From positions 41,168,001 to 41,232,000 of the forward strand of contig NC_058383.1 of assembly GCF_018350175.1 (NCBI RefSeq): a stretch of DNA of 64,000 nt. The letters run 5' to 3'. The stretch comes from Felis catus (Eukaryota). Made by a program: the position numbers and the translations under genes. This document shows positions 24,601-63,494 of this stretch, in pieces (the first letter of the stretch is position 1; the number at the start of each line of letters is the position of its first letter). The notes under the pieces are model-generated. The model saw nothing but the letters and a program-made list of their open reading frames with translations, had not been told where the DNA came from and searched no databases.

Positions 24601-25484
24601 TGGAGGCCCTGGTGGGGTCTCTAAGACGGTTGCAGAGCCCAGGTGGGGTGTGTGAAGTTGAGCCCAGGGCTTCAGCACTGCCGCCAGGGGACTTTCCAAA
24701 TATTGTTCACAGCACCGAGGCAGAACTTCTGGGGGGCCCCAGGAGCCTTGGGCGTTTGAATAGGGGGAGCAATGAGCTGGGGAACACCTGGCTGCACAAA
24801 CAGTGAGCTGTTAGTGTGCCTCACAACCTGCAGGACAAGGGAGCAAGGCGCTCTGCTAAAGGGCTTCCCCAAGTGCACCTTGACCATTCCCCCAGCTCAC
24901 TGCCCCACTCTTCTTCCCCGACTCTACCCCACCCCCGCTGTCCCCCGGAGGGTTACTGTGACCCAGGAAGGGTGGGAGGGGCTGCAACCCCCTTTCCAGC
25001 CCACCTTCCCTCTGATAGGAAGGAGGTGGGAATCTCCAAGAAACTGTCCAGCACCCGCATTTGCACCAGGAGTGCTGTGTTTTTGTGGTTTGTTTTGATC
25101 TAGACTGTTTAATGGGTGTTAGACTTCAAAAGAAGGTGGCAATCTTAAGACTCCCCTACCTCTTACCCCAGAGAGGGACCCTTGGAAGTCTGGCCCTTCC
25201 CAGGCCTGAACACGGTTCAGCACATTCCTGGAAGCATCAGCCTTACTCCCCTGCCCTCTCCCTCCAAAGTCAGAGAGGTCCCTGGTACCAGTGGAGGAGA
25301 ATCACCGCTCCCCCACCCCCCCAACCTCACCCCCCTCCACGACACGACACACGAAGGCCAGCGACAAAGAAGACAGAGGCGGACAGAGGCTGCAGCCCAC
25401 TCAGACTTTATTCAAAGATCAGGAAGTTCGGGTGCCCGGAGCCCAAGAGGCCCCGGGCCCTCAGGACGATCGCCCCGGCTTCAC

Positions 25485-26171
25485 TCAACGGTATTTGGAG
25501 GTCAGCACGGTGCTCACAGCGCTGAAGAACTTGTCCAGGGAGGCGTGGACGGCGGGGGTGAATTCCGCGGGGTGGTGGCAGGCCAGGGTCACCAGCAGGC
25601 AGTGGCTCAGGAACTGCGGGGAGGGGGGACGTCAGGGGGCGTCGGGGGACGCGGCTGCCCGCACTCCACCTTCTGGAACCCAAGGGACTCTGCCCTCCTG
25701 CCAGCAGGGTCCGGCGAGCCCTCCACCCCAGATGGCCCCCAGCCCGGTGCTCACCTTGAAGTTGACGGGGTCCACACGCAGCTTGTACGCGTGCAGGTCG
25801 CTCAGAGCCGACATGGCGGTAGGCAGGTCGTCCATGTGGGCCACGGCCTGCGTCAGCGCATCGGCCACCTTCTGGCCGTGGGCCTTGACCTGGGCGGAGC
25901 CGTGGCTCAGGTCGAAGTGGGGGAAGTAGGTCTTGGTGGTGGGGAAGGAGCAGAAGGTCCTGCCGGGAGGAAGAGGTGGGCGAGCCACGGTTAGGCGGGG
26001 CGGCGCAGGACAAGGATCGCGAGGGGTCGCTGAGCCCCGGGTGCCGGGTGCCCACAGGGGCAAGTTGGGTGCTCACCTCTCCAGGGCCTCTGCGCCATAT
26101 TCGCCAGCATGGGACCCAATCTTACCCCAGCAGGCCTTGACGTTGCTCTTGTCGGCGGCAGACAGCACCAT
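25485..26171 (-). CDS. HBA2: Adult alpha-globin, 5' copy; exons 26171-26077, 25959-25755, 25613-25485
   Basis: Same sequence as the copy 4510 bp away; CATAAA 26239-26234, CCAAT 26282-26278, AATAAA 25412-25407. Confidence 0.98.
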
Positions 26172-27885
26172 GGTTGGTTCTCTCTGAGTCTGTGTCGGGA
26201 CCAGAAGGTGCGGGGCCGCGAGGGCGCGGAGCCTTTATGCCCCGGGCGCGCGGGGCGCGCCTGCCCGGGCTGCGCTCATTGGCTGGCGCGGGGCCAGGAG
26301 GTGCGCTGGGCCGGCGGCAGCCCTCCCTCTCCCGGTTCCGCGCAGGCAGAGGTGCCTTCTCCAGTCCGGCCCCCGTGATTCTGGGAAGCCTACACAGGTT
26401 CCCCACCCATCTGTCGCGCACCCACGTTCGGCCCCGACCTGGGCTGTTTGCCGGTCGAGAAGGGGAGCACGGCTATTTTCTAAAGTAAAACGAGCTGCTT
26501 TCGCACCAGACTTTGCCGAGGACCAAGGGCTGTAGATTGTCCGTGTTAACGTGAAGGTGAAGGAGATAATGAGGGTTGACACCCTCCAAGCCCTCCTGCT
26601 GCCACTGGTGGGCCGGCGCTCCTAGGCAGCTCGGCGTTAACAGGTGAAGGTGCAGACCGTGGATGGGGGTGGGTAGTTCAGCTTAGGCTCCAGCACCCTT
26701 CGGACTTGAGTGTGGACTGCCACTGGGGCTCAGAGCTCCCTGCAGGAGCGGGTCCCCGCACCCGCCGAGACTGCTATCTGGGGAACCTTCCTCATTCCGA
26801 GTTGGGAGAGTTTCCAGGGTCCCTGGCCTTATTCCCTGGTCCACCAAGGTTCTGAGCAGAGAGCTAAGATTCCTGCCCTGTTGCTGCTGAGGGGAGAGAT
26901 TGACCCTGGCGGGCGGGGGTGGGGAGAGCAGGCGAGGAACGGCTTGGCTGGGAGACTTGCAGATACTGAAAGGCATAGGTGGGGCTGGATGGCCAAGTGC
27001 CTGCCAGGCACTGAGCCTGCCTCATGATCTTTTAAATTATTTCAAAAGACCCAGCGAGGTAGGGCTTTTTGTTGGTCGTCTGCTCTTCGTTTGCTTTTAC
27101 ATTGATGCGTGAGGCTCCTACGGCCCAGGGACATGTCCAGTGTCACAGAGCTTATCCTGTGAACCGGGTCGGAACCCTGCTGTGTGTGCCTGGTCGTGGC
27201 CATCGGGACATCCCACCCCAGTCTCCCACCCCACGAACTTCAGAGAAAGGACCCAACTTGGCCAGGGCAAGGTTTGCTGCAGATTGAGAGTCGCGGGGAG
27301 GGGAGAAGGCGCCGGGGGTCAGAGGAGGCCTGGCCCCTAAGTCTGTTTGACCTCAGGCCAGAAACCTGACCCTTGGGCCTGGTGCCCATGTTTGTCTGCA
27401 AAAGAGCTGCGAATTCTGAATTCTGGCTCCCAGCTCCCAGTGGGAGGGTTGGAGGAAGAATGAAGGAGTGAGCACGGGAGTGGGTGAGTGCAGACGTGCT
27501 TTGGAGCTGGGTGAGAACTGCTCCCAAAGACCCCTGTCATCCTGGTACCCACTTTGCCCCTCCCATTTCCTCGGCAGAGGAGGGCAATTGTTCTGTTCAA
27601 GCCTTTAGGGGTCCACACCCTGCCCAAGATCCAGCACCCTCAGCCCAGCAACCGCCCTCATTTCAGAGTTTGGAGAGATCCAAGGACCGGCTCCCGGGCC
27701 CCTGGTTCTTGGTCTGCAAGGGTTCGTGATGGCGCCCTAAGATTCCAGGAGTCTGCGCGTGGGACCCAGAGCTTCTGCCCAGCTTCTCGGCCCACCTGCC
27801 CCCCAAAGAACACACACGTGCAGGGTCCGGCCATTTGAGGCCTGTTTATTGACACGCACAGACCTAAGCCGGTGGGGCAGGGGAC

Positions 27886-28572
27886 TCATTGGTACTTCTC
27901 AGTCAGCACCATGGCTACTTCGGTCAAGAACTTGTCCCACGCCGCCTGCATCTGCACGGTGAACTCGCCCTGCAGGTGGGAGGCCAGCATCACATGGAAA
28001 CACTGGATCAGCAGCTGTGGGAGGAGGGGCGGATGAGAGGGGGTCTGCTGCAGCCACTTTCTCCTTTAACCCCAACCCCGGGGCGCCAATTCTACCGCGG
28101 CGGGGGCGGGCTCACAGGGAAGTTGGCGGGGTCCACGCGTAGCACTTGCGCGTGCAGGTCGGCCAGCGGGCTCAGGGCGGCGCGCAGGTGGTCCGTGTGT
28201 TGCACGGCCACGCCCACCGCCTCGAGCAAGCGTTGTCCGTGGGTCAGCAGCTGAGCTTCGTCGGGGCAGACGCCCAGGTGCTTGAAGTAGATCTTGGTGC
28301 TGGGATAGACCGTGAAGAGCCTGGTGGAGCAGGTCGGTGAGTGAGGGTGGCCGCGTGGGGTCCTTCCGGCGCCGGCACCTCCCAGACACCCGGAACCCCA
28401 GCCTGGCCCGCCCCTCTGACTCGGGCCCCCAACCCCTGTGTCCGCCTCCCTGTGACCCTGGAAACCCCGCCTCAACCCACCTGAGCAACAGCTCCGCCCC
28501 GAAGGCCGCCTCGTGGCCGGCGATCAGGTCCCAGACCTGCGCTACGTGGGCGCGCTCTTGGGCGCTGAGCAT
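27886..28572 (-). CDS. HBM: Mu-globin (alpha-D orthologue); exons 28572-28481, 28320-28116, 28014-27886
   Basis: 92/205/129-nt exons; [141 protein letters not shown]; CTATAA 28627-28622, AGATAA 28667-28662, AATAAA 27850-27845. Confidence 0.96.
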
Positions 28573-29375
28573 GGCGCCGGCCGGGCGTGCGCTGGCGGCC
28601 CCACCCGCCGCTCCCGCCTCCTTATAGCAGCCCCCACGCCTTCCAGGCGCCCCACCCGCCCTTATCTGCGGGACCCTCGGCCAGCTCGGGCAAATGCCTC
28701 CAGCCCAGGTCCCGATCGCTGCAGAGGCCACGGCCTGGGGCGGGCGGGGCCGGGGGTTACCGGCACCGACTCACGCCGCTGTGTGTGCGTGCTTTTGCTG
28801 CAGACTTGCGCGAAATCGGGAGAGCCTCCCCTGCGGGCAGCGTCAGAGCCTCTGCAGGAGGGAGCCAGTGGAGGGATTGGGAGAAAGAGCGCTGGGCAGG
28901 GACGCTTCTTTTCCGCTAGGGACACGGGAAGCGTATCGTGGGTCCCCGCAGTGCGGGACCTATAGTGTCAGGCTTTGAGGAAAAGCCCCCTGAGTGCCGA
29001 CAGGCACCCCACACGCACGCGACACGCTGAGTAAAGCGACGATCTTTGGGCGATTTGGGAAGCAGGACAGGAGCAAACGCACTTCGGACCCCGGAGAACC
29101 AGCCTGGGGCCTATCTACTCTCTCCCGATTCTGGGGTCCTCAGGCGCAGGGATCGAGCCACAGCGCCCTCGGGGTGGCCTCCAGGCCGGTGGTGACGCTG
29201 GGGTCCACCGCGTTCCTGTGGCTTACGCTTTCTATGCCTCACTTTCTCCCCTCCTTCGGCCAATACTGAGAACGCAGGACCCATTCCATCCGCATCCGTT
29301 TATTGGGGGCAAAATTGAGGGAAGTTGCAGGGGCAGGGGCGGGGTCGCAGCCGGCCCCCGGCCTGGCGGCGGCGC

Positions 29376-30750
29376 TCAGCGGTACTTCTCGGTCAGGACG
29401 CAGGACACGATGGACAGGAACTTGTCCCAGGCGGTATGGGCGTCGGCCGTGAAGTCAGCGGGGAAGTGCGAGGCCACCGTCACCAGCAGACAGTGGGACA
29501 GGAGCTGCGGGGCCCGGAGGGCGGCTCAGCGCGAGGCCGGGGTGCTCTGCGGGGGCTCTGGGGTGGGCGGAGCACCTTCGGCGGCCGAGACCCCGCCCTG
29601 CCCAGCCCCGCCCCCCCCCCCCCCCCGCCTGGTCCCCGCCAGGACCCCGGCCCCCGCGCGCACCTTGAAGTTGACCGGGTCCACGCGCAGAACGTAGGCG
29701 TGCATCTCACTCAGCTTGGACAGGGCGCCCGCGATGTTGTCGATGCTCTTGACCGCATCGCCCAGGGCGGCCGCCACCTTGGCGCCGTGCGTGCGCAGGT
29801 GCGCGGAGCCCGGGCGCAGGTCGAAGTGCGGGAAGTAGGTCTTGGTCTGGGGGTAGCTGGCGAAGAGTCTGCGGGAGGGCGGGACCTGAGCATTGGAGGA
29901 ACGTGGGGCCCCGTCCACCTCTCTACGACCCCTGCGTCCTTCTCCGAGCTTGAGGACCCAAGTGCGACCTCACCACCGCCCTGGGGCCTTCCAGCTCAGC
30001 AGGTGCACCACCTCCTGAGGTGTGCTGTGCTCTGACTGCTGCCCCTCCCCCAAGCTGCACCCCATGGTCCCAAGGCCTTCTGCCTCCACACCCTCCCAGC
30101 ACCCAGGCTCGCCCCTGCTCCCCACCTCAGCCCTCTTCCAGGGTCTCCTTGCTCCCAGCTGGCCCTGCACACCCACCGTAGGCCTCCAGCCCGTTTTCAC
30201 CTCTCCTCCGGCCACAAAAACCTCCTTCCCAACCCCTGACCGGGCTCCTGCTGTACCTACCGTCTGCCAGAAATAATGCCACCTGCAGGCACATTGCAAG
30301 GGAGAGCTCGTAGGGAAACCACCTGGGACCACCTTGCCCCAGGATTAGAGACCCTGGTGCTTGTAGATGCTTGACTGCCTCCTTAGGCATGTCAGGTGTT
30401 GGGGGAAACACATCCACACCCCTCTGGTGAGATGCTGGGCCTGTGCTTGTTCAGGACTCAGTGAGCATAGGGTCCATCAGAAGTCTGTGCAAGTCATCTG
30501 CCCCCCCTCACTGACCCCTTTCTCAGAGAACCCCCACCTCGCTGACCCCTCCTTAGGGACCCTTCCCGCAGAGAGCCCTCTCCTCACTGGCCCCTGTCCT
30601 CACCAACTCCACACTGTCACCTACGGGGCTCCACCCCGGCCCATCTGGCACTCACCTCTCCAGGGCCTGGGTGCCAATGGCATCCGCCTGAGTGGAGATC
30701 TTGCCCCACATGGACAGGATGATGGCCTTCTCAGCCTTGGTCAGAGACAT
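29376..30750 (-). CDS. HBZ: Embryonic zeta-globin, 3' (mu-proximal) copy; exons 30750-30656, 29868-29664, 29504-29376
   Basis: [142 protein letters not shown]; intact; AATAAA 29304-29299. Confidence 0.96.
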
Positions 30751-30817
30751 GGTGGTGGCTGAGCTGGAGCCGGGTGTGCCCAGGACTGGCCTCTGTGTGC
30801 TCACCCCCCGGGATCCC

Positions 30818-30904
30818 TTTATATACACAGAGCCGGGGTGGGGGCCAGGCTGTGGCCATTGGTCTGGAGAGGGGAGAGGGCTGTGGGGGTGGGGTCTCTT
30901 ATCA
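30818..30904 (-). promoter_or_regulatory. Zeta proximal promoter (3' copy): TATATAAA, CACCC, CCAAT, GATA
   Basis: tttatata 30818-30825, attgg 30858-30862, ggggtgggg x2, ttatca 30899-30904. Confidence 0.85.
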
Positions 30905-31889
30905 GGCCCAGCGAGGATGGGTGGTCACCAGTCCCTGGTGGGGCTGGTGGGGTGAAGAAGGGCTAACATTCCCCCCTCCCCGCACTGGGCCACAGCCTGA
31001 GTCCAGGTTCCAGGGAGGTAGGGGCCCAGTCCAGTGACTGACCTCTATAATCATGGTCGCCGAGTTCCCTGTCCTTGTGATATTAGGACGATCTAGAAGG
31101 TAGCAGGCTTTCACAGAAGCACTCTTTCCTCCTTCTTTTATTTAAGCTTCTGTAGCGTCACCTTACAGATGAGTGAATGGAGGTCCACAGAGGGAAACTG
31201 AGGCCAGGTGTCACAGGGTGTGAGTGACAGTCTTGGCTTCAGATGCTCTTGCCTGTGTGTATAGCACCTTCCTCACCTGGATAAGGCTCTTCTCCCCCAC
31301 AGGCCAAGTCCCTCAGCAGCTTGACTGGGGGGATTCTCCAAGCTGGGCACCCAGGCTGGGAGGAGGCTGGACTCTTCACACAGAGTCTGGGGTCACCCGA
31401 GCCTACAATCCTACCTGTCACATTCCCGTCACAGCCTGTACTATTTACATCTCTTTGCCTCTTACCTTATTCCCTTTCCCCTCTCTACCATAAGGCAACC
31501 ATTTTAATGTACTTAATATGTGCCTGTAGTTAGTATGTGTTCTTGCAAAGGGTGCGTGTATTTTGAGTTAAATTATAGCTAGGGGCATCTGGGCGGCTCA
31601 GTCGGTTAATCGTCCCACTTTGGCTGAGGCCCACAGTGCACCGTTCAAGCCCCTGTGAGGGAAAGTGTGACAGGAAGAGCCACTGAGGAAGCTCAGCGCG
31701 CCCTCCCCCCACCCCCTGCGAAACTCCTTGCTCATCCAAAGATGGCAAGGTCCAGGATGGCCCAGCTCGGCTGCCACCTCACAGCACATAATGGTTTTAG
31801 TGACATGTACTCAGTGTGGGAGCCCAGTGAGAACATGGGCACAAGCAAACAAAAGAGAAAAACCGTAACCCTCGTCCCACAGGGAAGAG

Positions 31890-33314: not shown

Positions 33315-33598
33315 ATTTTTTTTTTATGTTTATTCTTTAAATTTTTTTTTCAACGTTTATTTATTTTTGCGACAGAGAGAGACAGAGCATGAACGGGGGA
33401 GGGGCAGAGAGAGAGGGAGACACAGAATCGGAAACAGGCTCCAGTCTCTGAGCCATCAGCCCAGAGCCTGACGCGGGGCTCGAACTCACGGACCGCGAGA
33501 TCGTGACCTGGCTGAAGTCGGACGCTTAACCGACTGCACCACCCAGGCGCCCCTGTTTATTCTTGAAGGAGAGCAAGACAGAGTGTGAGTGGGGGAGG

Positions 33599-33775: not shown

Positions 33776-35273
33776 TTTAGGTCCCCTTTATATCCCAGTG
33801 TGTCCCAGTATGGAACGATGGTCCCCTTCACTGTCACCACTGGGGTCCCACAGTTGTGAACATTTGCCATGTTTGCATTATCAGCACATGTAGGGATATA
33901 TCTGGGTGTGCTTTACGTTTCTTCCAAAAATCTGGAATTGTGTGGGAGTCCTCCTGAGGCTCTGTGTCTACACTTCACGCATCTCCTAGACTAAGGTTTT
34001 CCTGCATAAATAACCACAGGTTTATCGCCAATCTAAGTGAATTAACATTCTTTCGCATCACATGTCCTCACTCATCACCAAAATTTGTTCAATCATTCAA
34101 ATTTAGATCTGACCCAGGCTCACACATAGCTTTCAGTTGTCTCTTTATTCTCTTATTCCAGAAACTTTCCACCCCACACCCACCTTTTCTCCATATCAGT
34201 GACTTTTTGGATAGTCCAGACAAGCTGTCTTACAGAATGTTCTACATTTTGCATTGGTCTGATGGTTTTACTTGAAGGTTTTGTTGTTGTTGTTTGTTTT
34301 AAGACAGTGCCTTTATCCATGCATTTCCTGTGCACTGGAAGTCAGATCTAAAGGCTTGGTTAGAGTCAGGTTAAAAATTATTGGCAATGGAAAGGGTGAA
34401 ACACAACCCGATTTAAAAATGGACAAAGGACTTTAATAGATTTTTCTCTAAAAAAAGATACACAGAAAGCACATGAGAAGATGCTCAACCTCATTACTCG
34501 TTAGAGGAACGAAACTGAAAACCACAGGGAAGTACTGCTTCACACTCAATGGGATACATACTATAAAAAAAAAAAAACAGGAACGAGGATCGGTGAGGCA
34601 GTGGAGAGACTAGCGCGTCACGCACTGCAGCTGGAAACGTGGGTTGGAGCAGCTGCCGTGGAAAACGAGCAGGGTTTTTCAAGTTGTCATTTTTTGCTTT
34701 TTTTAATTCTATTTTTGGTGATGTAAAAGATTTACATGATTGAAAAGTAACACCATCCAGAGAGTTAGACTTGGGGGAGCCCCTCCACCCCTTCTTTATC
34801 TCCATCCGTGTTATTATTTGTAATCATTTCCGCTTCATCCTTCAAGGATTTCCTTTTGCAAAACTAAGCAAACACAAGGGGTGCCTAGCTGGCTGAGTCA
34901 GTAGAGCGTGTGACTCTTGATCTCAGGGTCCTGAGTTCAAGTCCCATGCAGGGCATAGCACTTACTTAAAAAAAAAAAAGAGCAAATGCACACAAACTTA
35001 TATACACTCACAAGTGCACACACAGAGCTATGGTCGTAATCATACATGTGTGTCAAAATGTACACATACTCACACCTGTGAGTACACACAAATGCACACA
35101 CGCATTTGTATCTGCTCTCACTGTTTTTCTTTTTTTTTTTTTTAAGTAAACTCTATGTCCAGTGTGGGACTCCAACACACCACCCAGAGGTCAGGAGTCA
35201 CATGCTCTACAGACTGAGCCAGCCAGGCTCCCCCTCCTCTCCTTTCTTACAGAAAAACAGAAAAGCCGCCATG

Positions 35274-36329: not shown

Positions 36330-37700
36330 TCAGCGGTACTTCTCGGTCAGGACGCAGGACACGATGGACAGGAACTTGTCCCAGGCGGTATGGGCGTCGG
36401 CCGTGAAGTCAGCGGGGAAGTGCGAGGCCACCGTCACCAGCAGACAGTGGGACAGGAGCTGCGGGGCCCGGAGGGCGGCTCAGCGCGAGGCCGGGGTGCT
36501 CTGCGGGGGCTCTGGGGTGCGCAGAGCACCTTCGGCGGCCGAGACCCCTCCCTGCCCAGCCCCGCCCCCCCCCCCCGCCTGGTCCCCGCCAGGACCCCGG
36601 CCCCCGCGCGCACCTTGAAGTTGACCGGGTCCACGCGCAGAACGTAGGCGTGCATCTCACTCAGCTTGGACAGGGCGCCCGCGATGTTGTCGATGCTCTT
36701 GACCGCATCGCCCAGGGCGGCCGCCACCTTGGCGCCGTGCGTGCGCAGGTGCGCGGAGCCCGGGCGCAGGTCGAAGTGCGGGAAGTAGGTCTTGGTCTGG
36801 GGGTAGCTGGCGAAGAGTCTGCGGGAGGGCGGGACCTGAGCATTGGAGGAACGTGGGGCCCCGTCCACCTCTCTACGACCCCTGCGTCCTTCTCCGAGCT
36901 TGAGGACCCAAGTGCGACCTCACCACCGCCCTGGGGCCTTCCAGCTCAGCAGGTGCACCACCTCCTGAGGTGTGCTGTGCTCTGACTGCTGCCCCTCCCC
37001 CAAGCTGCACCCCATGGTCCCAAGGCCTTCTGCCTCCACACCCTCCCAGCACCCAGGCTCGCCCCTGCTCCCCACCTCAGCCCTCTTCCAGGGTCTCCTT
37101 GCTCCCAGCTGGCCCTGCACACCCACCGTAGGCCTCCAGCCCGTTTTCACCTCTCCTCCGGCCACAAAAACCTCCTTCCCAACCCCTGACCGGGCTCCTG
37201 CTGTACCTACCGTCTGCCAGAAATAATGCCACCTGCAGGCACATTGCAAGGGAGAGCTCGTAGGGAAACCACCTGGGACCACCTTGCCCCAGGATTAGAG
37301 ACCCTGGTGCTTGTAGATGCTTGACTGCCTCCTTAGGCATGTCAGGTGTTGGGGGAAACACATCCACACCCCTCTGGTGAGATGCTGGGCCTGTGCTTGT
37401 TCAGGACTCAGTGAGCATAGGGTCCATCAGAAGTCTGTGCAAGTCATCTGCCCCCCCTCACTGACCCCTTTCTCAGAGAACCCCCACCTCGCTGACCCCT
37501 CCTTAGGGACCCTTCCCGCAGAGAGCCCTCTCCTCACTGGCCCCTGTCCTCACCAACTCCACACTGTCACCTACGGGGCTCCACCCCGGCCCATCTGGCA
37601 CTCACCTCTCCAGGGCCTGGGTGCCAATGGCATCCGCCTGAGTGGAGATCTTGCCCCACATGGACAGGATGATGGCCTTCTCAGCCTTGGTCAGAGACAT
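36330..37700 (-). CDS. HBZ: Embryonic zeta-globin, 5' copy; exons 37700-37606, 36818-36614, 36458-36330
   Basis: Coding sequence same as the 3' copy; AATAAA 36245-36240. Confidence 0.97.
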
Positions 37701-37767
37701 GGTGGTGGCTGAGCTGGAGCCGGGTGTGCCCAGGACTGGCCTCTGTGTGCTCACCCCCCGGGATCCC

Positions 37768-37982
37768 TTTATATACACAGAGCCGGGGTGGGGGCCAGGC
37801 TGTGGCCATTGGTCTGGAGAGGGGAGAGGGCTGTGGGGGTGGGGTCTCTTATCAGGCCCAGCGAGGATGGGTGGTCACCAGTCCCTGGTGGGACTGGTGG
37901 GGTGAGGGGCTATCACTCCACCCTCCCCTTCGGCCTTAGAGGGGATGTTGGCCACAGCCTGACCAGAGTCCTGGAGAGATAG
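37768..37982 (-). promoter_or_regulatory. Zeta promoter (5' copy): TATA, CCAAT, CACCC, three GATA sites, two TGACCA motifs
   Basis: tttatata 37768, attgg 37808, ttatca 37849, ctatca 37910, agatag 37977; tggtca 37872, tgacca 37960. Confidence 0.85.
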
Positions 37983-38389
37983 GGGCCCAGCCAGCCCAGG
38001 AGGCCATGCCTGGGTTTATAGCCCAGCTCTGACCATCCTCTTGCACTTCAGAGTCACAGAATGGGGCAAACCAGAGCGTTAGCTCAACACACTGTCCTTG
38101 GGCTGGAGCAGGCCCCATTTCTGCCTGCCGGGCTCCTTAGTGGGATTCTGTGGCTAGCCCAGCCTGGCCACGCGTCAGTCTCCTCTCCCTCTGGCTCTGC
38201 GATCCCTGGGTTGCCTCTGAGAAAGCAATGGTTTTGTCCACGTGTTGCTGAGGAGAGATGGACTGACCCCCTCTGAAGAGCTGGATGAAGTATCAGATTA
38301 ATAAAAGAGAATTCTTGTAATCTGTGCTCATAGGGGTTGCCGTCCTGCTCACCATATCATCGTTGTGACATAATGAGGCAAATAGTTGT

Positions 38390-41300
38390 TTACGCTTTAT
38401 TTTAACGTCAAACAAAATTGACTTTTTTTAGTATACTGCTCTGTGAGTTTTGACATGCGTAAGTTCATTCAACCCCCGCCACAATCGGGACACACAACAG
38501 CTCTATCCCCCCCGCAAGAAACTCCCACATGCTGGGGGCCTTTGCCATCTCACCCGCCTTACACCTGAACTCTATAATTTTGTCTTTTCAAGAATAACAT
38601 ATGATCGAAGTCTATAGCGCGTTATCTCTTAGGACTGGCTTCTCTTAGACAGCGTGATACCCTTTATACCTCTCCGTGTTGTTACGTGTGCCAATAGTTC
38701 TATTTATCGCTGAGTCATGCTGTGTGGAATGAACCTGTCACAGTGTGTGCGTTCCTTCGCTTAACAAGAGTTTTCCCACTTTGGGACTACTGCTAAAGCT
38801 GCCACGAACGTTGTGCGTAGGTGTTCATGTGAGTGCAAGTTTTCATTTCTCTAGGGGATCCTTTTTCTAGGAGAGGACTGTTGGCTCATGTGCTACGTGT
38901 GTGTTTCTAAGAAACTGCGAACCTTTTCTAGGGTGGCCCGTACCATTTTGCATTGCGGTCGGCCGTGCAGGACGTTCTGGTCGCCACGTGTCGCTGCTGG
39001 CCTCTTTACACTGCAGTCGTTCTGACGGGCGTGCGAGGGTGTGGTGGTGTGCCTTTACTCCTCATTTCCCCCGAGAACCAGCGACGTGAGGGTCTTCTCA
39101 TGTGCTTCTCTGCCATCCGTACGTCTTCTTGGTGAAATATCTGTTCTGCTCTTCTGCCCATTTTTACAATAAGCTGTTTGTTTCTTACCGGCGAGCTCTG
39201 AGACACACTCTGTAGACATTTGCAGACACGCTGGGTGCAGTCTTTTGTCGGATGCGTGACTAGTGCATATCGTCTCCTAGTCTGTATCTTGTCACTTCAG
39301 CCTCTCGATAATGCCGCGTGCAGAGCCAAAGTTTTGATTTTGATCGAGTTCAGGTTACCAAGTTTTCCTTTTATGATTCATGCCTTTAGTGCCACCCCTG
39401 AGAGCACTGTGTCTCATTCCAGGCCACAACGATTTCGTCAGTGATTTCTTATCAAAGTTAATAGTGTATATTTCATGTTTGGATCAGTGATACGTTTGGA
39501 GATAAGTTTTTGTGTATGGGTTAGTTTTTGTTCGTTTCTTTTGGTTTGGTTTGCCTCTGAGTTGTTGCCACACCATTTATTGAAAAGACCGTACATCCCC
39601 TACTGGATTTCCTTCTCATAATCCTTTGTGAGAAATAAATCTGCTGTATTTTTCAGGTCTATTTCTGGACTCTATATTCTGTTGCATTTATCTGTGTGTC
39701 TATCCTTCACCAAAACCATACTATCTTGATTACTGTTGCTTTATGTTAAGTCTTTTTCTTAAAAGATTTTTTTTATTCTTTAATATTTTTTAAAAGTTTA
39801 TTTTACTTATTTTGAGAGAGATAGAGAGCATTGGAGGCAGAGAGAGAGAGAGAGACAGAGACAGAGAATCCTCACCAGGCTCCACACTGTCAGCATGGAG
39901 CCCGATGTGGCGCTTGAACTCAAGAAATGTGAGATAGAGACCTGACCAGAAAGCAGGAGTCGGTTGCTTAACTGGCTGAGCCACCCAGGTGTCCCAGTTT
40001 GTGTTAAGTCTTGAAATTAGATACTTGCCAAAGAATAAGAGAAATACTGCAAACCACGTGTCTGATAAGACACTGGTCCAAAATATTTTTTAAAAATCAT
40101 ACAATTCAACAATAAAAAGATAAAAGAATTTTTAATAGACATTTCTCTAAGGTATACAAATGATCAGTAAGTTCACGAAAGATGCTCAACATCATTACTC
40201 ATGAGGGAGATGCAAATCAAAACCAAAAACAGGTTCCACTTCACACCCCTGAGGATGGCTATGATCAGAAAGACGAAATGCCAAGTGTGGACTAGGATGT
40301 GGAATTGGGATCTTTACGTGCTGTTGGTAAGAATGTTCCCACATGACCAAACTGACTCTTCTACTCTGAGGTACATCCCCAAGAGAAATGAAAACATAAG
40401 ATCACACAAGAGCTTGTATGTTCATAGCAACATCATTCGTAGTAGCCAAAAAGTGGCTCAGTTGGCTCCTGGGTGGCTCAGTCGGTTAGGTGACTGACTT
40501 CGGATTGGGTCATGATCTCGCAGTTTGTGGGTTCGGGCCCCGCGTCGGGCTCTGTGCTGACAGCTCAGAGCCTGGAGCCTGCTTCAGATTCTGTGTCTCC
40601 CACTCTCTCTACCCCTCCCCTAGGGGCTCACACTCTGTGTCTCTGTGTCTGTCTCTCAGTAATAAATAAACGTTAAGAAAATTTTTTTAAAGTGTGAACG
40701 ACCCAAATGTCCATCAGCTGATGTGGGATAATCCACGCAAAGAAATAGTGTTCAGTCACAAAAGGGAATGAAGTACCGCTACGTGAACGAATCTTGAAAA
40801 CACACAAGTTGTATGATTCCATTCATATGAAATGTCCAGAACAGGGATATCGATAGAGAAGGAAAGTAGCTTAGGTAGTTTAGACACGGGGAGTTGGAGG
40901 GTGTGGCTGCTAGGGTATGGAGTTTCTTTGGGGGTGATGAAAACATTCCAACATAGGAGCGCCTGGGTGGTTCGGTCGGTTAAATGTCTGACTTCGGCTC
41001 AGGTCATGATCTCACGGTTCGTGGATTCAAGCCCCGCGTGGGACTCTGTGCTGACAGCTCGGAGCCTGGGGCTGCTTCGGATTCTGTGTCTCCCTCTCTC
41101 TGCCCCTCCCCTGCTCATGCTCTGTCTCTCTCTCTCACTCTCTCAAAAATAAATCAGCATTAAAAAAATAATAAAATAAAATAGATCGTGGTAATGGTTG
41201 TATAACTCCCTGAATCTAAAAACGCATGCTTTAAATAAGTGAAGTGCCTGCTGCGTAACTTGTACCTCGTTACAGCTGTGAAAGGGTCGCGTAATGTCAC

Positions 41301-41440
41301 TCCTCCCACTTTATCCTTCATTTCCAAAATGGTGTTAGTTATTCTAGTTCCTTTGCCTTTCCATATGAATTTTAGAGGCAGCCAAAGAGGTATCCGGACA
41401 AAATCCTGCTGGACTTTTTTTATAGAATCAGAAACTCCTG
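38390..41440. mobile_element. Nested old LINE-1s: - strand L1 (about 38390-40022, resuming about 41286-41440) hosting a + strand L1 fragment (about 40025-41283), plus three Can-SINEs
   Basis: L1 ORF2-end motifs (MREMQIKT..RFHFTP) on +; caccatttattgaaaagac, tcttgattactgt, ttgcctttccatatgaattttaga on -. Confidence 0.7.
40178..40948 (+). repeat. Left arm of long inverted repeat (pairs with 47533-48358)
   Basis: 40368-40948 is the reverse complement of 47533-48113 with 2 mismatches; 40178-40367 matches with an approximately 57-bp indel and several substitutions. Confidence 0.95.
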
Positions 41441-44400
41441 TGTAGGGAGTTTTCGTCACGGATGTTTTGCGAAACTATTCTTAGAGAAAATTTGGCTTGG
41501 ACGAGCCCTTTGAAATGGAAAACACGTACGCCAGGCACCGTGCTGCCGTTTTATTCATGTCGCGGTGCTCATTTCTTCTATACCTGAGATGTGAGATGGT
41601 GAGAGAGTCGGGGGTTGAGGGTGGGAGCAGCATCTGATGGATGCCCCGTCAGCCCTGCAGACAAGGTAAGGCTCTCTCCCTGCGTGTGTCCCGGAGGGAG
41701 AGTCTGCCTTCCCAGACTGAAGTGTGGCCTTCTCCTTCCTGGTCTCTCCTTTATTTACATTTCACAGCTGTCCCCCCCCCCTTTTTTTTTTAAATTAAGT
41801 TTATTTGTTTTGATAGAGAGAGACAGAAAGGGAGAGAGAGAGTCCCAAGCAGGCTCCTTGCTGTCAGCGTGGAGCCCCACAATGGGCTGGAACTCACGAA
41901 TTGTGACATCATGACCTGAGTGGAAACCAAGAGTCGGATGCTCAACAGACTGAGCCACCCAGACGTCCCAGCTGCCCCTTCTTTTTACGAGACGGTGTTC
42001 CCCTGTCCTAGGGGTGTGCCCACCGTCCCTTGGCTTTGTGATTGTTTGCTAACTGTCCTGAGAAGTGATGCTGCCAACCCCAGGGGGCCCCAGGATGTTT
42101 GCCTGGAGTGTGGCTGTGCCTCTCTGGGTTCATCCGAGACTGAGATGAGCCCAGCCATCCTTGGTCTTCACTTGCTGTCTCTTGATTCGGAAGGAAAGTC
42201 CAGCACCACCTCAGGCTCGCAGGCCTATATGAGGGTGTGTAAGGGTGTGTAAGGCTGTGCTGCTCCTTCCGGTTTCTAGAAAGGAGAGGCAGGGAGAGGC
42301 AGCGGGAGAGACGGAGGTGGACAGACAGACTGACAAACAAAAGAGAATGTGTGAGTGAGAAGAGGCTGAGGGTCAGAGGGAAGGTCAGGCAGAGGTAGGT
42401 AATCTGGAGTCCCCGGGGTGAAGCACAGAGAGGTGTCAGTGAGGAACGTGCCTGGGAGAATCCCTCCAGCTGTGGCGTCTGGGGAAACTGTGGCCAGAAG
42501 ACCCTGGGGGGCTGCCCTGTCCCCTAACAGCAGGTAATGACCATGGATTCCAGGATCCCACTCCCAGGCAGCTGTCTCCCCTACGGCGGATGATCCTCAC
42601 CTCCCTTCGGTCCTCCAGGGCCTCCTCTTTCCACCCTGGCAGAACCCCCACCCCATCCTTCGCCTCTGCAAGGAGAGGGAGCCACAGGAGGCCTCTTTGT
42701 TCCTGAAACTTCCAAGCCCCACAAACCATCGTTGTGAGCAAACGTCCCATTCTCTTTTCCTTTTTTTCATTGTGAACTATAGCACAGGGCACACAGTGGA
42801 GCTTCATGAGTTGTTATAAAGCAGATACCGAGCGCCCCAATCCTCCTGAAAGGTGATCCCACCCTGACTTACCCTCTCGCTTCTCACTTTTTACCGCCCA
42901 AACATGCACCCTTCAGCACTTCAGTTGTTTCTGCCTGCCTTTGGCCTTCGGATACATGGAACAATACCACATGCCCTCTTTCACGTCTGCCTTCTTTCAC
43001 CCGTGTCTGTGAGAGGCCAGCCACATCGTGGGGAGTACCTTTTCATCGCTGTGCTGTATCTCCTTGTAGGAACAGACCTCAGGTCATCCACTGTGCTGGG
43101 GGTGGATGTTGCTTGTTAGGTCTTGGCTGTTAGGAATAACGCCATGAACATTCTTGCACGTGTCACTGGATGGCCATGTGCCTGCACTTCTATGGGGTAC
43201 GTTCCCAGGATTGCTGGTTCTAGGGGCATGCGTATTTTTAGCTTTAGGGGATAATGCCAGACTTCTCTCCAGGTAGCTGTACCACCTCACAGCCTTGCCA
43301 GCGGTGCATGGGCTACCCTTCCAAGCATTTCCTGTGGTTGGTCTGCCGCTCTCCTTAGCTTTTGGCTTTTCTGATGGGTATGTAGTAGTGTCTCATGTGG
43401 TCTTAATTTGCATTTTCCTGGTGACCGGTGAGGTTGGGCCCCTGTTCACACATTTGCAGTTCAATTGAATTTCCTCTTCAAAAAAAAAATTTTTTTTTTT
43501 AATTTGAGTGTAGTTGACACACAATATTGCATTAGTTCCAGGCATAAGATTTCCCTGTTTTTGTTTTGTTTTGTTTTGTTTTTTGCAGTATCCAACTCAT
43601 GCCTGTTTGTCTACTGTGTTGCTAGTTTTACTGATTTATAGGAATTTAAAATATATTCTGGATGTAAGTTCCTGGTCAGTTTTCTGTCATTATCTTCCTC
43701 AACTCTGCTGTTTGCCTCCACTCTCTTAATACTGTTCTTGGTTGAACAGAAGTGTATCATTTAGTTATTTAGTTAGCAGTCAAATTTCGTTATTTTTTGG
43801 TCCTATTTAAAAATGCTGGGGGCACCTGGGTGGCTCAGTCGATTGGGTGGCAGACCCACTCAGGTCATGATCTCACAGCTCCTGAGTTCGAACCCCACAT
43901 CGGGCTCTGTGCTGTCAGCTCAGATCCTGGAGCCTGCTCCAGATTCTATATCTTCCCCCTCTCTCTGCCCCTTTCCTGTTTAGGNNNNNNNNNNNNNNNN
44001 NNNNNNNNNNNNNNNNNNNNNNNNNNNNNNNNNNNNNNNNNNNNNNNNNNNNNNNNNNNNNNNNNNNNNNNNNNNNNNNNNNNNNNNNNNNNNNNNNNNN
44101 NNNNNNNNNNNNNNNNNNNNNNNNNNNNNNNNNNNNNNNTGAGTGGCTCAGTCACTTAAGCATCTGACTCTTGATGTCGGCTTGGGTCATGATCTCACGG
44201 TTTGTGAGTCCAAGCCCCATGTTGGGCTCCCCGGCTGACGGTGCAGAGCCTTCTTGGGATTCTCTCTCGCCCTCTCTCTCTCTCTCTCTGCCCCTCCCTT
44301 CCTCATGCTCTCACCCTCTGCCTTTCAAAAGAAATGAATTCGGGGTGCCTGGCTAGCTCAGTCAGTTAGGCATCTGACTTCAGCACCACGACCTTGCGGT

Positions 44401-44459
44401 TGGTGAGTTTGAGCCCCAAATCGTGCTCTCTGCTGTCAGTGCAGAGCCAGCTTCGGATC

Positions 44460-44498
<39 letters not shown>

Positions 44499-45949
44499 GG
44501 TGGGTGTCCCTTCCCCACTCATGTGCTCTATTTCAAAATTAAATAAACAAACTTTTAAAAAAATGTACCTTTCGGGGTACCTAGGTGGCTCAGTCGGTTA
44601 AGTGTCCAACTCAGGTCATGTTCAGTGTTCAGCTGAACACTGTTAAGTGTTCAGCTCAGGTCATGATCTCACGGTTCATGAGTTCGAGCCCCAAATTGGT
44701 CTCTGTGCTCACAGTGTGGAGCCTGCTTGAGATTCTCTCTCTCTCCCTCTCTCTCTCTCTGCCCCTCCCTGGCTCGTGCTTTCTCTCTCTCCCTCAAAAT
44801 AAATAAACTTAAAATAGAAGAGAGATTCTCTTGTAAAAGAAAAATGTTGTATCTTTCTATTTAGAAAAGCCAAGTGTCCATCAATGGATGAATGGGTAAA
44901 CGAATTCTGGTATTTCCATTCGATGAGATATTACTCAGCCATAAAAATGAGGCACTGACACCTGCTACAAGTGGGTGAACCTTGAAAACATGATAGTCAG
45001 TGAAAAGCCAAACAGCAAAGACCACACACTGTGTGATTCCATCCGCGTGGAATGCCAGGAAAGCAGATGAGCGGGTGCCAGGGGCTGGGGGGGGGGGGGG
45101 GCAATTCATAAAGGGTACTAAGTTTCCTTTTGGGATAATGGAAATACTCCAGAACCAGATAGTGATGATGGTCGCATGCCGTTGTGGACATACAAAATGG
45201 CACCAAATTGTTCACTGTGAAGTGGTTAATTTTGCATTTTGTGAATTTTGCTCCAGTTTTCTACAAACTGAAATAAGTGTTGGGCCAAGGTGAAGAGAAA
45301 CTTCCGTGCTAGCTTTCTAAGAACTTCACCATTTAGTCTTTTAGGTCAGGCAACAGTCGACCTGGGACATGAGAAGTGCCGTGGTTCTCACTGACATTGA
45401 TCACCTGCCTTCTGCATTCTGGATACAGCACCAAACACTCTCCATGTGTGTTTGCCCTCACAGGTCTCTGTGGGAGAAGCTTTCTTTTATTATCGTTACA
45501 TGTTTTAAGATAAGGAAATCGAGGCACAGGAGAGTTACGAAATGTTAAAGTTTCAGTGAAGGAGGGAAACACCCCAGTGGGTAGACGAGACCTAAGTTTT
45601 GTGCGGGCCAGACTGCAGGCTCTTTGGGGCTCAGGCAAGTCTCTTCTGTCTCTGGGCCTCGGTTCCCCTGCCTGTGACACAAGGAGCCCGAGCTTGGGCA
45701 GTGCTCCTGCTGGACGCTGAGACCTGCTGGAATTGGCTGAACTCCAAGCCCTGGGCTCACTCAGAGCTTGTATAGTTGGGGCTGAGCTCAGAGGATCCTG
45801 GTCACTCAGCAGAAGGCCGCGATGGGGTCCACAGACCCTTCCCGAGAGTAGCCCCTGGCTGGCCCTGAGCAGGGTAATTAACCTTGTAAACCCCAGTTCT
45901 ACATTTGCAACCTCTCAGGTGGGGTATGAATAGCCCCCACCTCACTGCT

Positions 45950-46180
45950 AGGAGGGATAATCTGTCACCATAGGACCGCAGAACGCGGCAGCGTGAATTC
46001 AAGGTTATCGTAGCTACTACTGTGAGTGGGTGATTCTTTCTGGGCAGGAACACTGCTGCCGAGAAGGTAGAGGCGTCGAGGCGGGTCCGAGATAGGGTGT
46101 GTGAGCCCTGCCTGGCTCTCTGACAGACAGTGGCGGCTCCACTGGGCCCAGAACAAGTGGCAGGACTGATAAGGCCTCCT
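45950..46180. promoter_or_regulatory. Candidate erythroid enhancer MCS-R4 (HS-10 equivalent)
   Basis: GATA cluster in non-repeat DNA: ggataa 45955, ttatcg 46005, AGATAG 46090 abutting GGGTGTG (CACACCC), TGATAA 46167; lies about 8.4 kb upstream of zeta and about 3.3 kb from the NPRL3 promoter, where R4 is expected by synteny. Confidence 0.55.
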
Positions 46181-46283
46181 GGCCCTGGCCAGAGGGGACC
46201 CAGGTTGGGTGTACGGGTTTGGAATTTTCATTTCCAAGAATCGAGTTGTCTTCAAAAATTAGGTTACTAAACAGAATTATTTA

Positions 46284-46521
46284 TTTATTTATTTATTTAT
46301 TTAAAAAAAATTTTTTTTCAACGTTTATTTATTTTTGGGACAGAGAGAGACAGAGCATGAACGGGGGAGGGGCAGAGAGAGAGGGAGACACAGAATCGGA
46401 AACAGGCTCCAGTCTCTGAGCCATCAGCCCAGAGCCTGACGCGGGGCTCGAACTCACGGACCGCGAGATCATGACCTGGCTGAAGTTGGACACTTAACCG
46501 ACTGCGCCACCCAGGCGCCCC
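46284..46521 (-). mobile_element. Young SINEC_Fc with 16-bp TSD
   Basis: taaacagaattattta on both sides; intact body and (TAAA)n tail. Confidence 0.9.
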
Positions 46522-47405
46522 TAAACAGAATTATTTAAATGTATAATGAGGGCACAGAGGTGTGGGGTGTTAGCAGGGAAGAGTTGGAAGATGTGAGCAA
46601 AGGTTGGCCCTGGGCACATCATTGTCCAGGAAACTGTGAGGGCTTTGAGGTAGGACCACACTTAGAGACCACCTGCTCCCAATCCTGTTGCAGGTGCGGA
46701 GGCCCAAAGCAGGGCCAGCCTACCCCCAGGTCCCTCCAGCTGCTGGCACCTGCCAGATTGTCCAGGAAGTGACAGTGAGCTCTGATTTCTGTAACAGCCC
46801 AATAAGGCAGGCCAGTGTGGACTCTGAGATGCTGCCAGTGAGGGTGGTGTGCGATTCGGACCTCTGCTCTCTCCAGTCCAGCCCTGGATAGCCTTGCACC
46901 CGAGCCCTGCTAGGGCAGCCTGGGAAGGCATCCATGCAGGACCTCTGTGGCCTGGGTCCTAGTGGTCCCCCTTTACCTTTCATGGATCCCAGTACTCATT
47001 ACTTGATAAGATACTAACTATATAGCCAGAAAAATAAACAACAAATGCTCTTGTGAAAGCTGCTAGCAGGAAGCAGGCCCCGAGGGGGTGATTGGAGAAG
47101 GGTAGTTTCCTCCAAATCTGGGACTTCCCCCAGAGTTCTGGGGTCAAGAGACTGCCCAATGGGGGCAGCAACACGGCCAGGGAAATTGGAGGAAGGGGGC
47201 CTGTGACAGAGTCCTAGACCTCACATGTGAGTACTGGGCAGAGTCCAAGGACCCCTGTGGACAGGCCCCCATGACCACAGCTGGCCACTCCCCCAGACAC
47301 AAATCCCTTCCCTTTCCTTAGTCTCACCTCCTGCTTCTGTGCCCTTATTCCCATTTCAGGGCCATTCCTGGGAACTGTGAGAGAACTCAGAAGCCTTTTT
47401 TTTTT

Positions 47406-47461
<56 letters not shown>

Positions 47462-47532
47462 CTGTGAGCAGGAGAGGTGTGCAGTTTTCGTATATTCAGA
47501 GGATTGTGCAACCATTACCACAATCAATTTTA

Positions 47533-48358
47533 GAATGTTTTCATCACCCCCAAAGAAACTCCATACCCTAGCAGCCACACCCTCCAACTCCCCGTGTCTA
47601 AACTACCTAAGCTACTTTCCTTCTCTATCGATATCCCTGTTCTGGACATTTCATATGAATGGAATCATACAACTTGTGTGTTTTCAAGATTCGTTCACGT
47701 AGCGGTACTTCATTCCCTTTTGTGACTGAACACTATTTCTTTGCGTGGATTATCCCACATCAGCTGATGGACATTTGGGTCGTTCGCACTTTAAAAAAAT
47801 TTTCTTAACGTTTATTTATTACTGAGAGACAGACACAGAGACACAGAGCGTGAGCCCCTAGGGGAGGGGTAGAGAGAGTGGGAGACACAGAATCTGAAGC
47901 AGGCTCCAGGCTCTGAGCTGTCAGCACAGAGCCCGACGCGGGGCCCGAACCCACAAACTGCGAGATCATGACCCAATCCGAAGTCAGTCACCTAACCGAC
48001 TGAGCCACCCAGGAGCCAACTGAGCCACTTTTTGGCTACTACGAATGATGTTGCTATGAACATACAAGCTCTTGTGTGATCTTATGTTTTCATTTCTCTT
48101 GGGGATGTACCTCGGAGTAGAAGTTAGTTCAGTCATGCGGGAACCCCAGGTTCAACCTTTTGAGGAACTTCCTGTTTTCCACCGTGGCTGCACCATTTTA
48201 CATTCTTACCAACAGCACGTAAAGATCCCAATTCCACATCCTGGTCCACACTTGGCATTTCGTCTTTCTGATCATAGCCATCCTCGGGGGTGTGAAGTGG
48301 AACCTGTTTTTGGTTTTGATTTGCATTTCCCTCATGAGTAATGATGTTGAGCATCTTT
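47533..48358 (-). repeat. Right arm of long inverted repeat, inside a - strand old L1 (about 47480-48870)
   Basis: Reverse complement of 40178-40948, including the same embedded Can-SINE. Confidence 0.95.
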
Positions 48359-49199
48359 TCATGAATTCACTGGCCATTTTTCTGTATTCTTTGGATAAAT
48401 GTCCTTTCACATCCTTTGCCCATTTTTCTTAAGTTTATTTAATTTTAGTAATATCTACACCCAGCATGGGTCTCAAACTCAGGACTCTGGAGATCAAGTC
48501 ACACACTACCTGCTGAGCCAGCCGGGCACCTCTCTGCCCATTTTTCAGTTGGTTGTCTTTATTTTGAGTTGTAAGTTTTTGTTTTGTTTTGTTTTGTTTT
48601 TTTAACATTCTGGATACAATTCCCTTATATGATTTGCAAATATTTTCTCTCATTCTGTGGGTGCTCTTTTTACTTTCTTTGGTGGTGCTCCTTGAGGCAT
48701 AAACGTTTTTAATTTGCTAACTCCAATTAATTTTTTCTTTAGCCACTTGTGCATTTGGTGTCTTATCTAAGAAACCCTTGCCTAGTCCAAGGACAAGAGG
48801 GTTTACTCCTATGTTTTCTGGTAAGAGTTTTATGCTGTTAGCTCTCAACTTAGGTCTATGATCCTTGTGAGAGATTTTTTTACTTTCTGACGTTACTACT
48901 TTATGTTTTAAGTCTGAACTTTCTGTCCAAAGCAAGTGTTAGAGTGAAGAAAGCAACATTTTAGGGGCCTGGGTGGCTCAATCCGTTGAGCATCCGACTC
49001 TAATTTAATCACTTCAGGTGTGGTCTCCCTGTGGTCCGAGGAGCCACTCTCAGCATAGAGCCTGCTTGGGAATTCTCTCTGCCTCCCTCTGCCCTTTTCC
49101 CCCTCACGTGCTCTCTCTGTCTCTCAAATTAAACAAACAAACATTAAAAAAAAAGAATGCAACATTTTGATACAGTCTGCTTGAACCCCAAAGGCACAC

Positions 49200-49980
<781 letters not shown>

Positions 49981-62139: not shown

Positions 62140-62220
62140 GAGCCTGGGCTCTGAGATAAGACTCGACACTGCACCCCCCAGCAGTCTCCTCCCTGTGGTG
62201 CCTTTCCCTTATCTGGACCG
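62140..62220. promoter_or_regulatory. Candidate erythroid enhancer MCS-R3 (HS-33 equivalent)
   Basis: CTG-N7-AGATAA (62144-62159), CACCC, TGTGGT (62194), TTATCT (62209-62214); about 0.8 kb upstream of the third coding exon, similar to my recollection of the human HS-33 position. Confidence 0.6.
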
Positions 62221-62931
62221 CTTCGGGCAGGAAGGAACAGGGCCGCTGGTGGGGAGACCCAAGGGTGCAGATGCATCTTGAAAAGGAGTGAGCTCTGCGG
62301 TTTTACAGAGATTGTATCCAGAGCTGCTGTCGCACTGCAGCCATTCCTCCTTTTCCATGGCATCCAGTCCTGTGTGCCCCCACATTTCTGTCATATCGTT
62401 GGTTCTGCATATTTTGCATATCTTAGAAGTTTCATCCCTAGTAAGAACCCAGATGAGGAAACAGCCAGACAGCCGTGCTGTGAGGAAGGTAATTAACACA
62501 CTGTAGTTAGTGTTGTCCCCTCGCCCTTCACACACCTGGGGATGGGAGGTCCTGGGGGTTGTGGGGTGCAGCCTGGCAAACCTGGGCCAGTTGGGGGAAC
62601 CCCCCAATACGTCTGTGAGCCTCAGTGAGTGGCTTCTCAGGGCAGTGCCAGCTCCAGCTGTTGTCCTCCCTTTAAAAGCAAACTGCAACTCGTTTCTGTC
62701 CTGAATTTCATAGAGCATGCCGAGAAATGACAGCATGTGCCTTCAGCCTATGCTTCTCATGCCTTTTACCTTGTAATTCTGGTGATTTTATGTCCCTGAT
62801 CTTGGGGATTGCTTCAAAAGGGAAACTGATAGAAATCTCCAAGTCAGCAGTGGGGGTTGACCACTCCACGCACGAAGCTGCCATGTCCTGAGACCTTTCC
62901 TCTCTGAGGGCAGGTGGGTGTGGTGCTGTGA

Positions 62932-63494
<563 letters not shown>

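Follow-up and report, generated by a model that had tools for sequence, protein, structure and literature searches.

The window analysed here, a stretch of 64,000 nucleotides of the Felis catus genome (contig NC_058383.1, positions 41,168,001 to 41,232,000 of the forward strand), contains what we take to be the alpha-globin cluster, and between its upstream zeta-globin gene and the promoter of the neighboring gene, presumably NPRL3, two old L1 fragments in opposite orientation share a nearly identical inverted repeat. We propose, with a probability of roughly 0.7, that the arms of this repeat are the product of non-allelic gene conversion between the two L1 fragments, without crossover. The spacer between the arms holds a cluster of erythroid motifs that is a candidate for the alpha-globin facilitator MCS-R4, so named R4 below. 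Published papers are cited by PMC identifier.

Near-Identical Inverted Arms within Diverged L1 Sequence

The arms consist of a long tract (T2) and a shorter one (T1), whose coordinates are collected in Table 1. The original prediction had described a near-perfect inverted match of 581 bp with two mismatches at CpGs and an embedded short interspersed element (SINE) with a doubled head. We found exactly this: T2 is identical at 579 of 581 positions in perfect runs of 264, 62, and 253 bp, both differences (A/G at 40632 and T/C at 40695) lie in a CpG context, and the SINE occupies the same site in both arms. A further region of about 190 bp had been called similar; the similarity and its 57-bp indel are real, but the region is not uniform, being composed of T1 (154/157 identical) and a diverged 32-bp island with 25 of 30 aligned bases alike and a 2-bp gap (about 80%). 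The island differs from T2 (p = 4e-6) and from T1 (p = 0.003), and not from the outer flank (p = 0.48). Across both tracts there are five differences, three of them at CpG. Among 45 inverted pairs of at least 100 nt in the window, the T2 pair (597 nt, 99%) and the T1 pair (159 nt, 98%) head the list, and the other pairs are 70–90% alike (among the best 25 of the 45).

The patch of identity has sharp edges, beyond which the arms continue, as had been predicted, as clearly diverged L1 sequence, in register at 60–79% identity. Outer flanks agree in 110 of 144 aligned columns and inner flanks in 38 of 46 once the SINE present only on the left is excised; when gaps are counted as misses, the values are 69/115 for the far outer zone, 31/40 for the near outer zone, 25/32 for the island, and 36/48 for the inner zone. 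T2 ends within 10 bp of the left-only SINE and T1 ends at the 57-bp deletion, and tract edges at such heterologies would fit homology-directed copying. L1 fragments were placed by frameshift-aware mapping to a profile of 20 full-length L1 ORF2 (open reading frame 2) proteins, chosen by length from 120 listed, and the ORF2 coordinates of the two arm-bearing elements agree. Together with the in-register flank homology at both ends, this indicates that both partners existed before the copying. Flanking markers are unexchanged: the older L1 that hosts the left element is continuous across it, a state with which an even number of flips is also compatible.

To what extent the arms stand out was judged against the other repeats of the window. 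Ten L1 fragments were compared, and 44 of the 45 pairs are 56–72% alike with identical runs of 5–15 bp, while identical runs in the L1 part of the arms reach 253 bp; the arm patch is therefore neither chance nor ordinary family likeness. The L1 parts of the tracts also share two internal deletions that, by eye, have no counterpart in the other fragments. The arm SINE copies are 99.5% alike, more than any other of the 210 pairs that can be formed from the 21 SINE copies of 170 bp or longer (for which the median is 77%), and have 22 sites in common that are rare in the other 19 copies. Because these copies are nevertheless about 10% away from the majority SINE state of the window, the SINE must have aged before it was last copied. 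The diverged flanks in register, the common SINE, and the common deletions together support the earlier suggestion that two old, oppositely oriented L1 copies were recently homogenized.

Proposed Mechanism and Points That Weigh against It

Our proposed mechanism starts from two long-dead L1 3' fragments, inserted independently and facing opposite ways in the interval from zeta-globin to the NPRL3 promoter, with about 7 kb between them. One of them would have suffered a break, the chromatid would have folded back, and the other fragment would have served as template for the repair. The copying would have proceeded by synthesis, because a whole SINE and two internal deletions were carried across, and no crossover would have followed, given that the host L1 still continues on either side of the left arm. 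Conversion between neighboring Alu elements acts within about 10 kb (PMC8230782). The arms themselves probably have no function of their own; they would be a repair scar and now a modest substrate for further conversion or, rarely, inversion.

Several points weigh against this account. The evidence comes from one assembly, one haplotype, and one species, and no clear target-site duplication was found by eye for the left L1. The divergence of T2 (0.34%) is of the order of allelic differences, so identity alone would be compatible with a misplaced allele. A DNA-level comparison of host continuity with another old L1 in the window did not discriminate, as 199 of 489 random joins scored as high. 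Finally, the identity usually needed for such recombination is roughly 92% (PMC3966225), and the flanks, at 75–79%, are well under this value, so that the first event would have needed a rare homeologous start.

A 23-base word from the tract gave no exact match in metagenome contigs. Other old L1 3' ends, sought as outgroups, gave one match in metagenome contigs, none in viral contigs, and one in prokaryote genomes; of these candidates, one proved not to be L1, and the other is a bacterial contig by its title.

Age, Number of Events, and Donor

Ages were estimated with cat pedigree mutation rates, including a CpG rate (PMC9290555). T2 was dated to 0.4 million years (0.05–1.4) by these rates and to 0.6 million years (0.07–2.0) by a phylogenetic rate, and the finding of no non-CpG difference in 545 sites caps its age at about 2.3 million years. 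These data suggest that T2 was copied within about the last 2 million years at most. That both T2 differences fall at CpG has a probability of 0.40 under cat mutation rates versus 0.004 under random error. The estimate for T1 is 2.7–4.1 million years (0.6–12), and three of the five arm differences lie in T1, where the expected share is 17% (p = 0.04). This weakly hints that T1 is an earlier, separate event, an indication drawn from five mutations and from tract limits that were set once the data had been seen; T1 and T2 may also stem from one patchy conversion event.

The left arm was possibly, on weak indications from base composition, the donor. CpG occurs at 12/501 in the tract versus 4/593 in the right flanks (p = 0.02) and 7/268 in the left flanks (p = 0.8), a contrast with the right that softens to p = 0.06 when the left-copy count of 10/501 is used; at each of the three CpG differences in the tracts, it is the left copy that has lost the CpG. 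Identity to a young L1 gave no separation of left and right sides as donor. The fringe zones beside the tracts are among the most alike when set against 86 control zones (median, 0.64; maximum, 0.78), and this likeness may reflect either an older layer of conversion or a shared subfamily.

Alternative Explanations

The arms could also have been made by replication template switching, in which a fork stalled in one L1 jumps to the inverted L1 at a short homology, copies, and returns once or twice. Such switching would give the same product as conversion, without an intermediate that can be resolved as an inversion, and it would account both for copying between elements about 78% alike and for a discontinuous tract with a diverged island and a deletion. 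We nevertheless consider it unlikely: register is kept exactly at both ends of each tract, no bases were gained or lost at the junctions where T2 begins and stops, and homologous pairing is the simpler explanation of four junctions that are all in register.

It is also rather improbable that the left L1 arose long ago as a DNA-level duplicate of the 3' part of the right L1, placed in inverted orientation within the host L1, and that successive conversions have since maintained the likeness of the two in layers. The near outer, island, and inner zones, which all rank so high among the control zones, and the apparently greater age of T1 would suit this history. However, the far outer zone (69/115) is no closer than an unrelated young L1 is at 72/115, the left element possesses a 3' end that the right one is without, and about 78% identity is also near what two old L1s of the same subfamily could show.

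Compared with gene conversion, an assembly or gap-filling artefact, with one site filled from the other or perhaps from a second allele, appears very unlikely. Four runs of N occur in the window, one of them in the spacer, and a misplaced second allele would likewise show CpG differences; neither arm nor the immediate flanks, however, contain any N. A locus swap by an assembler needs long exact overlaps, whereas unconverted L1 pairs share at most 15 identical bases, and an artefact would have had to create four junctions that keep register, together with a deletion and an island that are both private, besides arm differences that are mutation-like in having three of five at CpG.

That this haplotype is itself inverted, with the arms as a scar of the breakpoints left by staggered-break duplication or by a crossover with a conversion tract, is highly improbable: near-identical inverted arms around 6.6 kb do resemble known small transposon-bounded inversions (PMC3961182), but the host L1, which a single inversion would have broken, continues across the left arm, and staggered-break duplication does not give diverged L1 in register on both sides of the arms.

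Orientation of the Spacer and Prospects for Inversion

The orientation of the spacer was read from the host L1. The upstream piece of the host (41482–41292) maps to ORF2 residues 810–872 with a score of 82.6, compared with a mean of 36.3 and a maximum of 49.6 in 40 shuffles, and the host resumes at residue 876 at 39752, across the left element and with a 15-bp stub between. The sequences that an inverted haplotype would put beside the host L1 score 34.9 and 37.8, which is the level of shuffles. Because the host L1 thus reads straight through the left arm, we take this haplotype to be in the ancestral orientation, or to have undergone an even number of flips, on the strength of the protein-profile result. 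The original prediction of a non-inverted haplotype therefore stands, as do its spacer length of 6584 bp, within which it had passed over 155 N, and its calculation that a flip would move the candidate enhancer from about 8.4 to about 4.7 kb from zeta. The same flip would bring the candidate from 19.9 to 16.2 kb of the nearer alpha gene, with no gene broken.

The minimal processing segment is quoted as more than 200 bp in mouse cells and as 337–456 bp in humans (PMC3966225), and the longer perfect runs of the arms, at 253–264 bp, lie above the former and below the latter. In the Y palindrome P6, 146 conversions were accompanied by three inversions (PMC3723533). An inverted cat allele is accordingly possible and would not be expected to be common. 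A stronger version, in which the L1 pair has been re-homogenized repeatedly in felids and the 6.6-kb spacer occurs in both orientations among cats or between cat species, is unlikely. In the region from 36 to 51 kb of the window, no exact CTCF-like site was found; 12 were found when up to two mismatches were allowed, five of them in the spacer, a number that is not meaningful.

The Candidate Erythroid Element in the Spacer

A GATA/CACCC cluster had been predicted at 45950–46180. A cluster is present, although it comprises only two WGATAR sites (46090 and 46167), one KLF-like site, and one E-box-GATA composite. This composite is one of two in the window, and two WGATAR sites together with a KLF-like site inside 300 bp occur at three places in the window, the candidate element among them, as counted by motif pattern and without a shuffle control. 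Measured to the start codons (ATG), the element is 8.4 kb away from zeta and 3.7 kb away from NPRL3; MCS-R4 is located between zeta and the promoter of NPRL3, and its distance from zeta in the mouse is about 8 kb (PMC4199490). From this position and the GATA/E-box/KLF cluster, the element is probably R4.

In the mouse, rescue by R4 reportedly depends on position more than on sequence (PMC10858684). Inverting the whole enhancer cluster was found to matter in this species (PMC11414744, PMC11762767), and no effect was seen in mouse cells when the enhancer R2 alone was inverted (PMC11762767). A spacer flip in the cat would be expected to have a small effect, since the shift is 3.7 kb and the element would still lie between the main enhancers and the genes.

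Elsewhere in the spacer, a second patch that looks non-repetitive, at 46980–47060, contains a WGATAR site at 47004 and could belong to a regulatory element. A SINE at 46310–46521, about 130 bp from the candidate enhancer, forms with another in direct orientation 13 kb away (33344–33553) a pair that is 97.6% alike, the next best unrelated pair being 91% alike. Their identity ends at the element edges, and the 46310 copy has a perfect 16-bp target duplication. The pair probably represents a young subfamily, with local conversion as a possible alternative.

Layout of the Window and Other Features

The window holds a minus-strand alpha-globin cluster with a theta-like gene, two alpha genes, a mu-like gene, and two zeta genes, and beyond the zeta genes a GC-rich promoter is followed by plus-strand exons. 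The globin gene names and NPRL3 were recognized from translations and are presumptive, as are the SINE and L1 family names used throughout. Among single-domain PDB chains, the best match to alpha exon 2 was 3d4x_A, with 145 bits versus 127 for the next; this entry is cat hemoglobin. An exact look-up of an alpha-globin exon fragment gave no match, and there was no Rfam match in 38000–49500.

Table 1. Positions of the arms, their host elements, and the surrounding features within the window
Feature	Positions	Strand	Remarks
Host old L1, downstream piece	38400..39755	-	ORF2 residues 876-1163 at 39754-38903; outer end approximate
Old SINE in host L1	39779..39995	-	15-bp host stub next to it, 40008-40022
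Left L1 3' fragment, inserted in host L1	40023..41286	+	Starts near ORF2 residue 1028; start mapped to about 40015-40023; bears left arm
Tract T1, left copy	40178..40334	+	154/157 identical to right copy
Diverged 32-bp island adjoining the 57-bp deletion	40336..40367	+	25/30 aligned bases alike plus 2-bp gap, about 80%
Tract T2, left copy	40368..40948	+	579/581 identical to reverse complement of right copy
SINE with doubled head, in both arms	40453..40689	+	Edges approximate; differs by about 10% from majority SINE state of window
SINE in left L1 only	40955..41183	+	T2 ends within 10 bp of it
Host old L1, upstream piece	41288..41484	-	ORF2 residues 810-872
Spacer between arms	40949..47532	.	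6584 bp; no gene recognized
N run in spacer	43985..44139	.	155 N
Candidate erythroid element	46085..46175	+	WGATAR 46090, KLF-like 46094-46102, E-box-GATA composite 46154-46172; putative MCS-R4 by position only
Right L1 3' fragment	47462..48930	-	ORF2 residues 940-1208, mapped from 48929, plus 3' end; own SINE near 48430-48535; bears right arm
Tract T2, right copy	47533..48113	-	Partner of 40368..40948
57 bp in right L1 only (deleted on left)	48145..48201	-	T1 ends here
Tract T1, right copy	48202..48358	-	Partner of 40178..40334
Upstream zeta-globin gene (coding span)	36330..37700	-	Six-frame globin motifs and sequence; reference point for distances
NPRL3 GC-rich promoter region and first coding exon	49200..49866	+	Name presumed from translation; outside arms

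Old L1 pieces near the zeta genes (38400–41600 and 34380–34700) are rich in CpG, with observed/expected ratios of up to 0.77–0.98 versus 0.2–0.4 in most other old L1 pieces, which suggests germline hypomethylation or GC-biased conversion. The two alpha genes have an identical run of 1014 bp in common (20772–21785 and 25282–26295), and the two zeta genes one of 1328 bp that includes intron 1 and the promoter (29615–30942 and 36565–37892); these runs reflect either ordinary concerted evolution or assembly collapse. The mu-like globin gene (27889–28575) consists of three exon-like pieces with recognizable reading frames. The four N runs of the window measure 136–166 bases (6445–6580, 14108–14253, 23783–23948, and 43985–44139), and at least two of them lie within SINEs. 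An NPRL3 intron contains a tandem repeat at 63100–63493, whose unit is about 80 bp or a fraction of that length, and several GATA sites adjoin it at 62154–63051.

Significance and Comparison with Known Systems

Conversion between transposon pairs and small transposon-bounded inversions are known in humans, and the cat locus is a new instance rather than a new mechanism. A literature search of titles and abstract openings found no description of the repeat in cats; felid inversion tables, which lie outside that coverage, could bear on it. Here old repeats, although far less alike than such exchange normally requires, would have undergone conversion; the case is clean and can be dated, and insertions and deletions would have fixed the limits of its tracts. 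Less ordinary are its low starting identity, about 78% compared with the roughly 92% usually needed (PMC3966225), and its globin address. If both orientations exist and the motif cluster is R4, cats would carry a natural allele pair in which R4 moves from 8.4 to 4.7 kb from zeta while genes and other enhancers stay in place, and hence a natural test of the position dependence of a facilitator. Such an inverted allele would amount to a free experiment, because the effect of R4 depends on position more than on sequence (PMC10858684). The pair might further belong to a larger group, spread across the genome, of converted inverted L1 pairs with a spacing of about 10 kb from which small inversions in cats arise.

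MCS-R4 as described in other work (PMC4199490, PMC11414744, PMC11762767, PMC10858684) and the cat element are alike in position and in a few erythroid motifs, the cat element being known from sequence alone. The Y palindrome P6 (PMC3723533) likewise combines arm-to-arm conversion across a spacer with rare crossover; its arms are far longer and lie on a non-recombining chromosome, whereas the cat arms are short repeat fragments of autosomal type.

Among human inversions, HsInv0347 (THE1C, 1.6-kb repeats, 7.1 kb) and HsInv0341 (L1PA3, 6.2-kb repeats, recurrent) belong to 22 candidates with repeats of at least 1.6 kb, a set selected for repeats long enough to need inverse PCR (PMC3961182). Both resemble the cat locus in having an inverted transposon pair around a segment of a few kilobases. 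The cat repeats are shorter (0.58 plus 0.16 kb versus at least 1.6 kb), and the cat haplotype presents only one orientation. The FLNA-EMD region reportedly has 11-kb repeats that are homogenized across species and is found in both orientations. Its inversion, HsInv0389, has been termed a mammal recurrent inversion (PMC3961182), and a yeast flip/flop region has 4-kb repeats homogenized across species, again with both orientations (PMC9731477). As in these two systems, inverted repeats in the cat would be kept alike by conversion around a segment that may be functional, although the cat locus is known from one genome and one orientation.

Non-allelic conversion between Alu elements (PMC8230782) also involves dispersed repeats within about 10 kb, and its partial tracts likewise give rise to mosaic elements. 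In the cat, by contrast, the partners are 3' fragments of old L1s whose identity outside the tract, about 78%, falls short of the optimum of 89–100% given in that work, and the tract is longer and carries a nested SINE.

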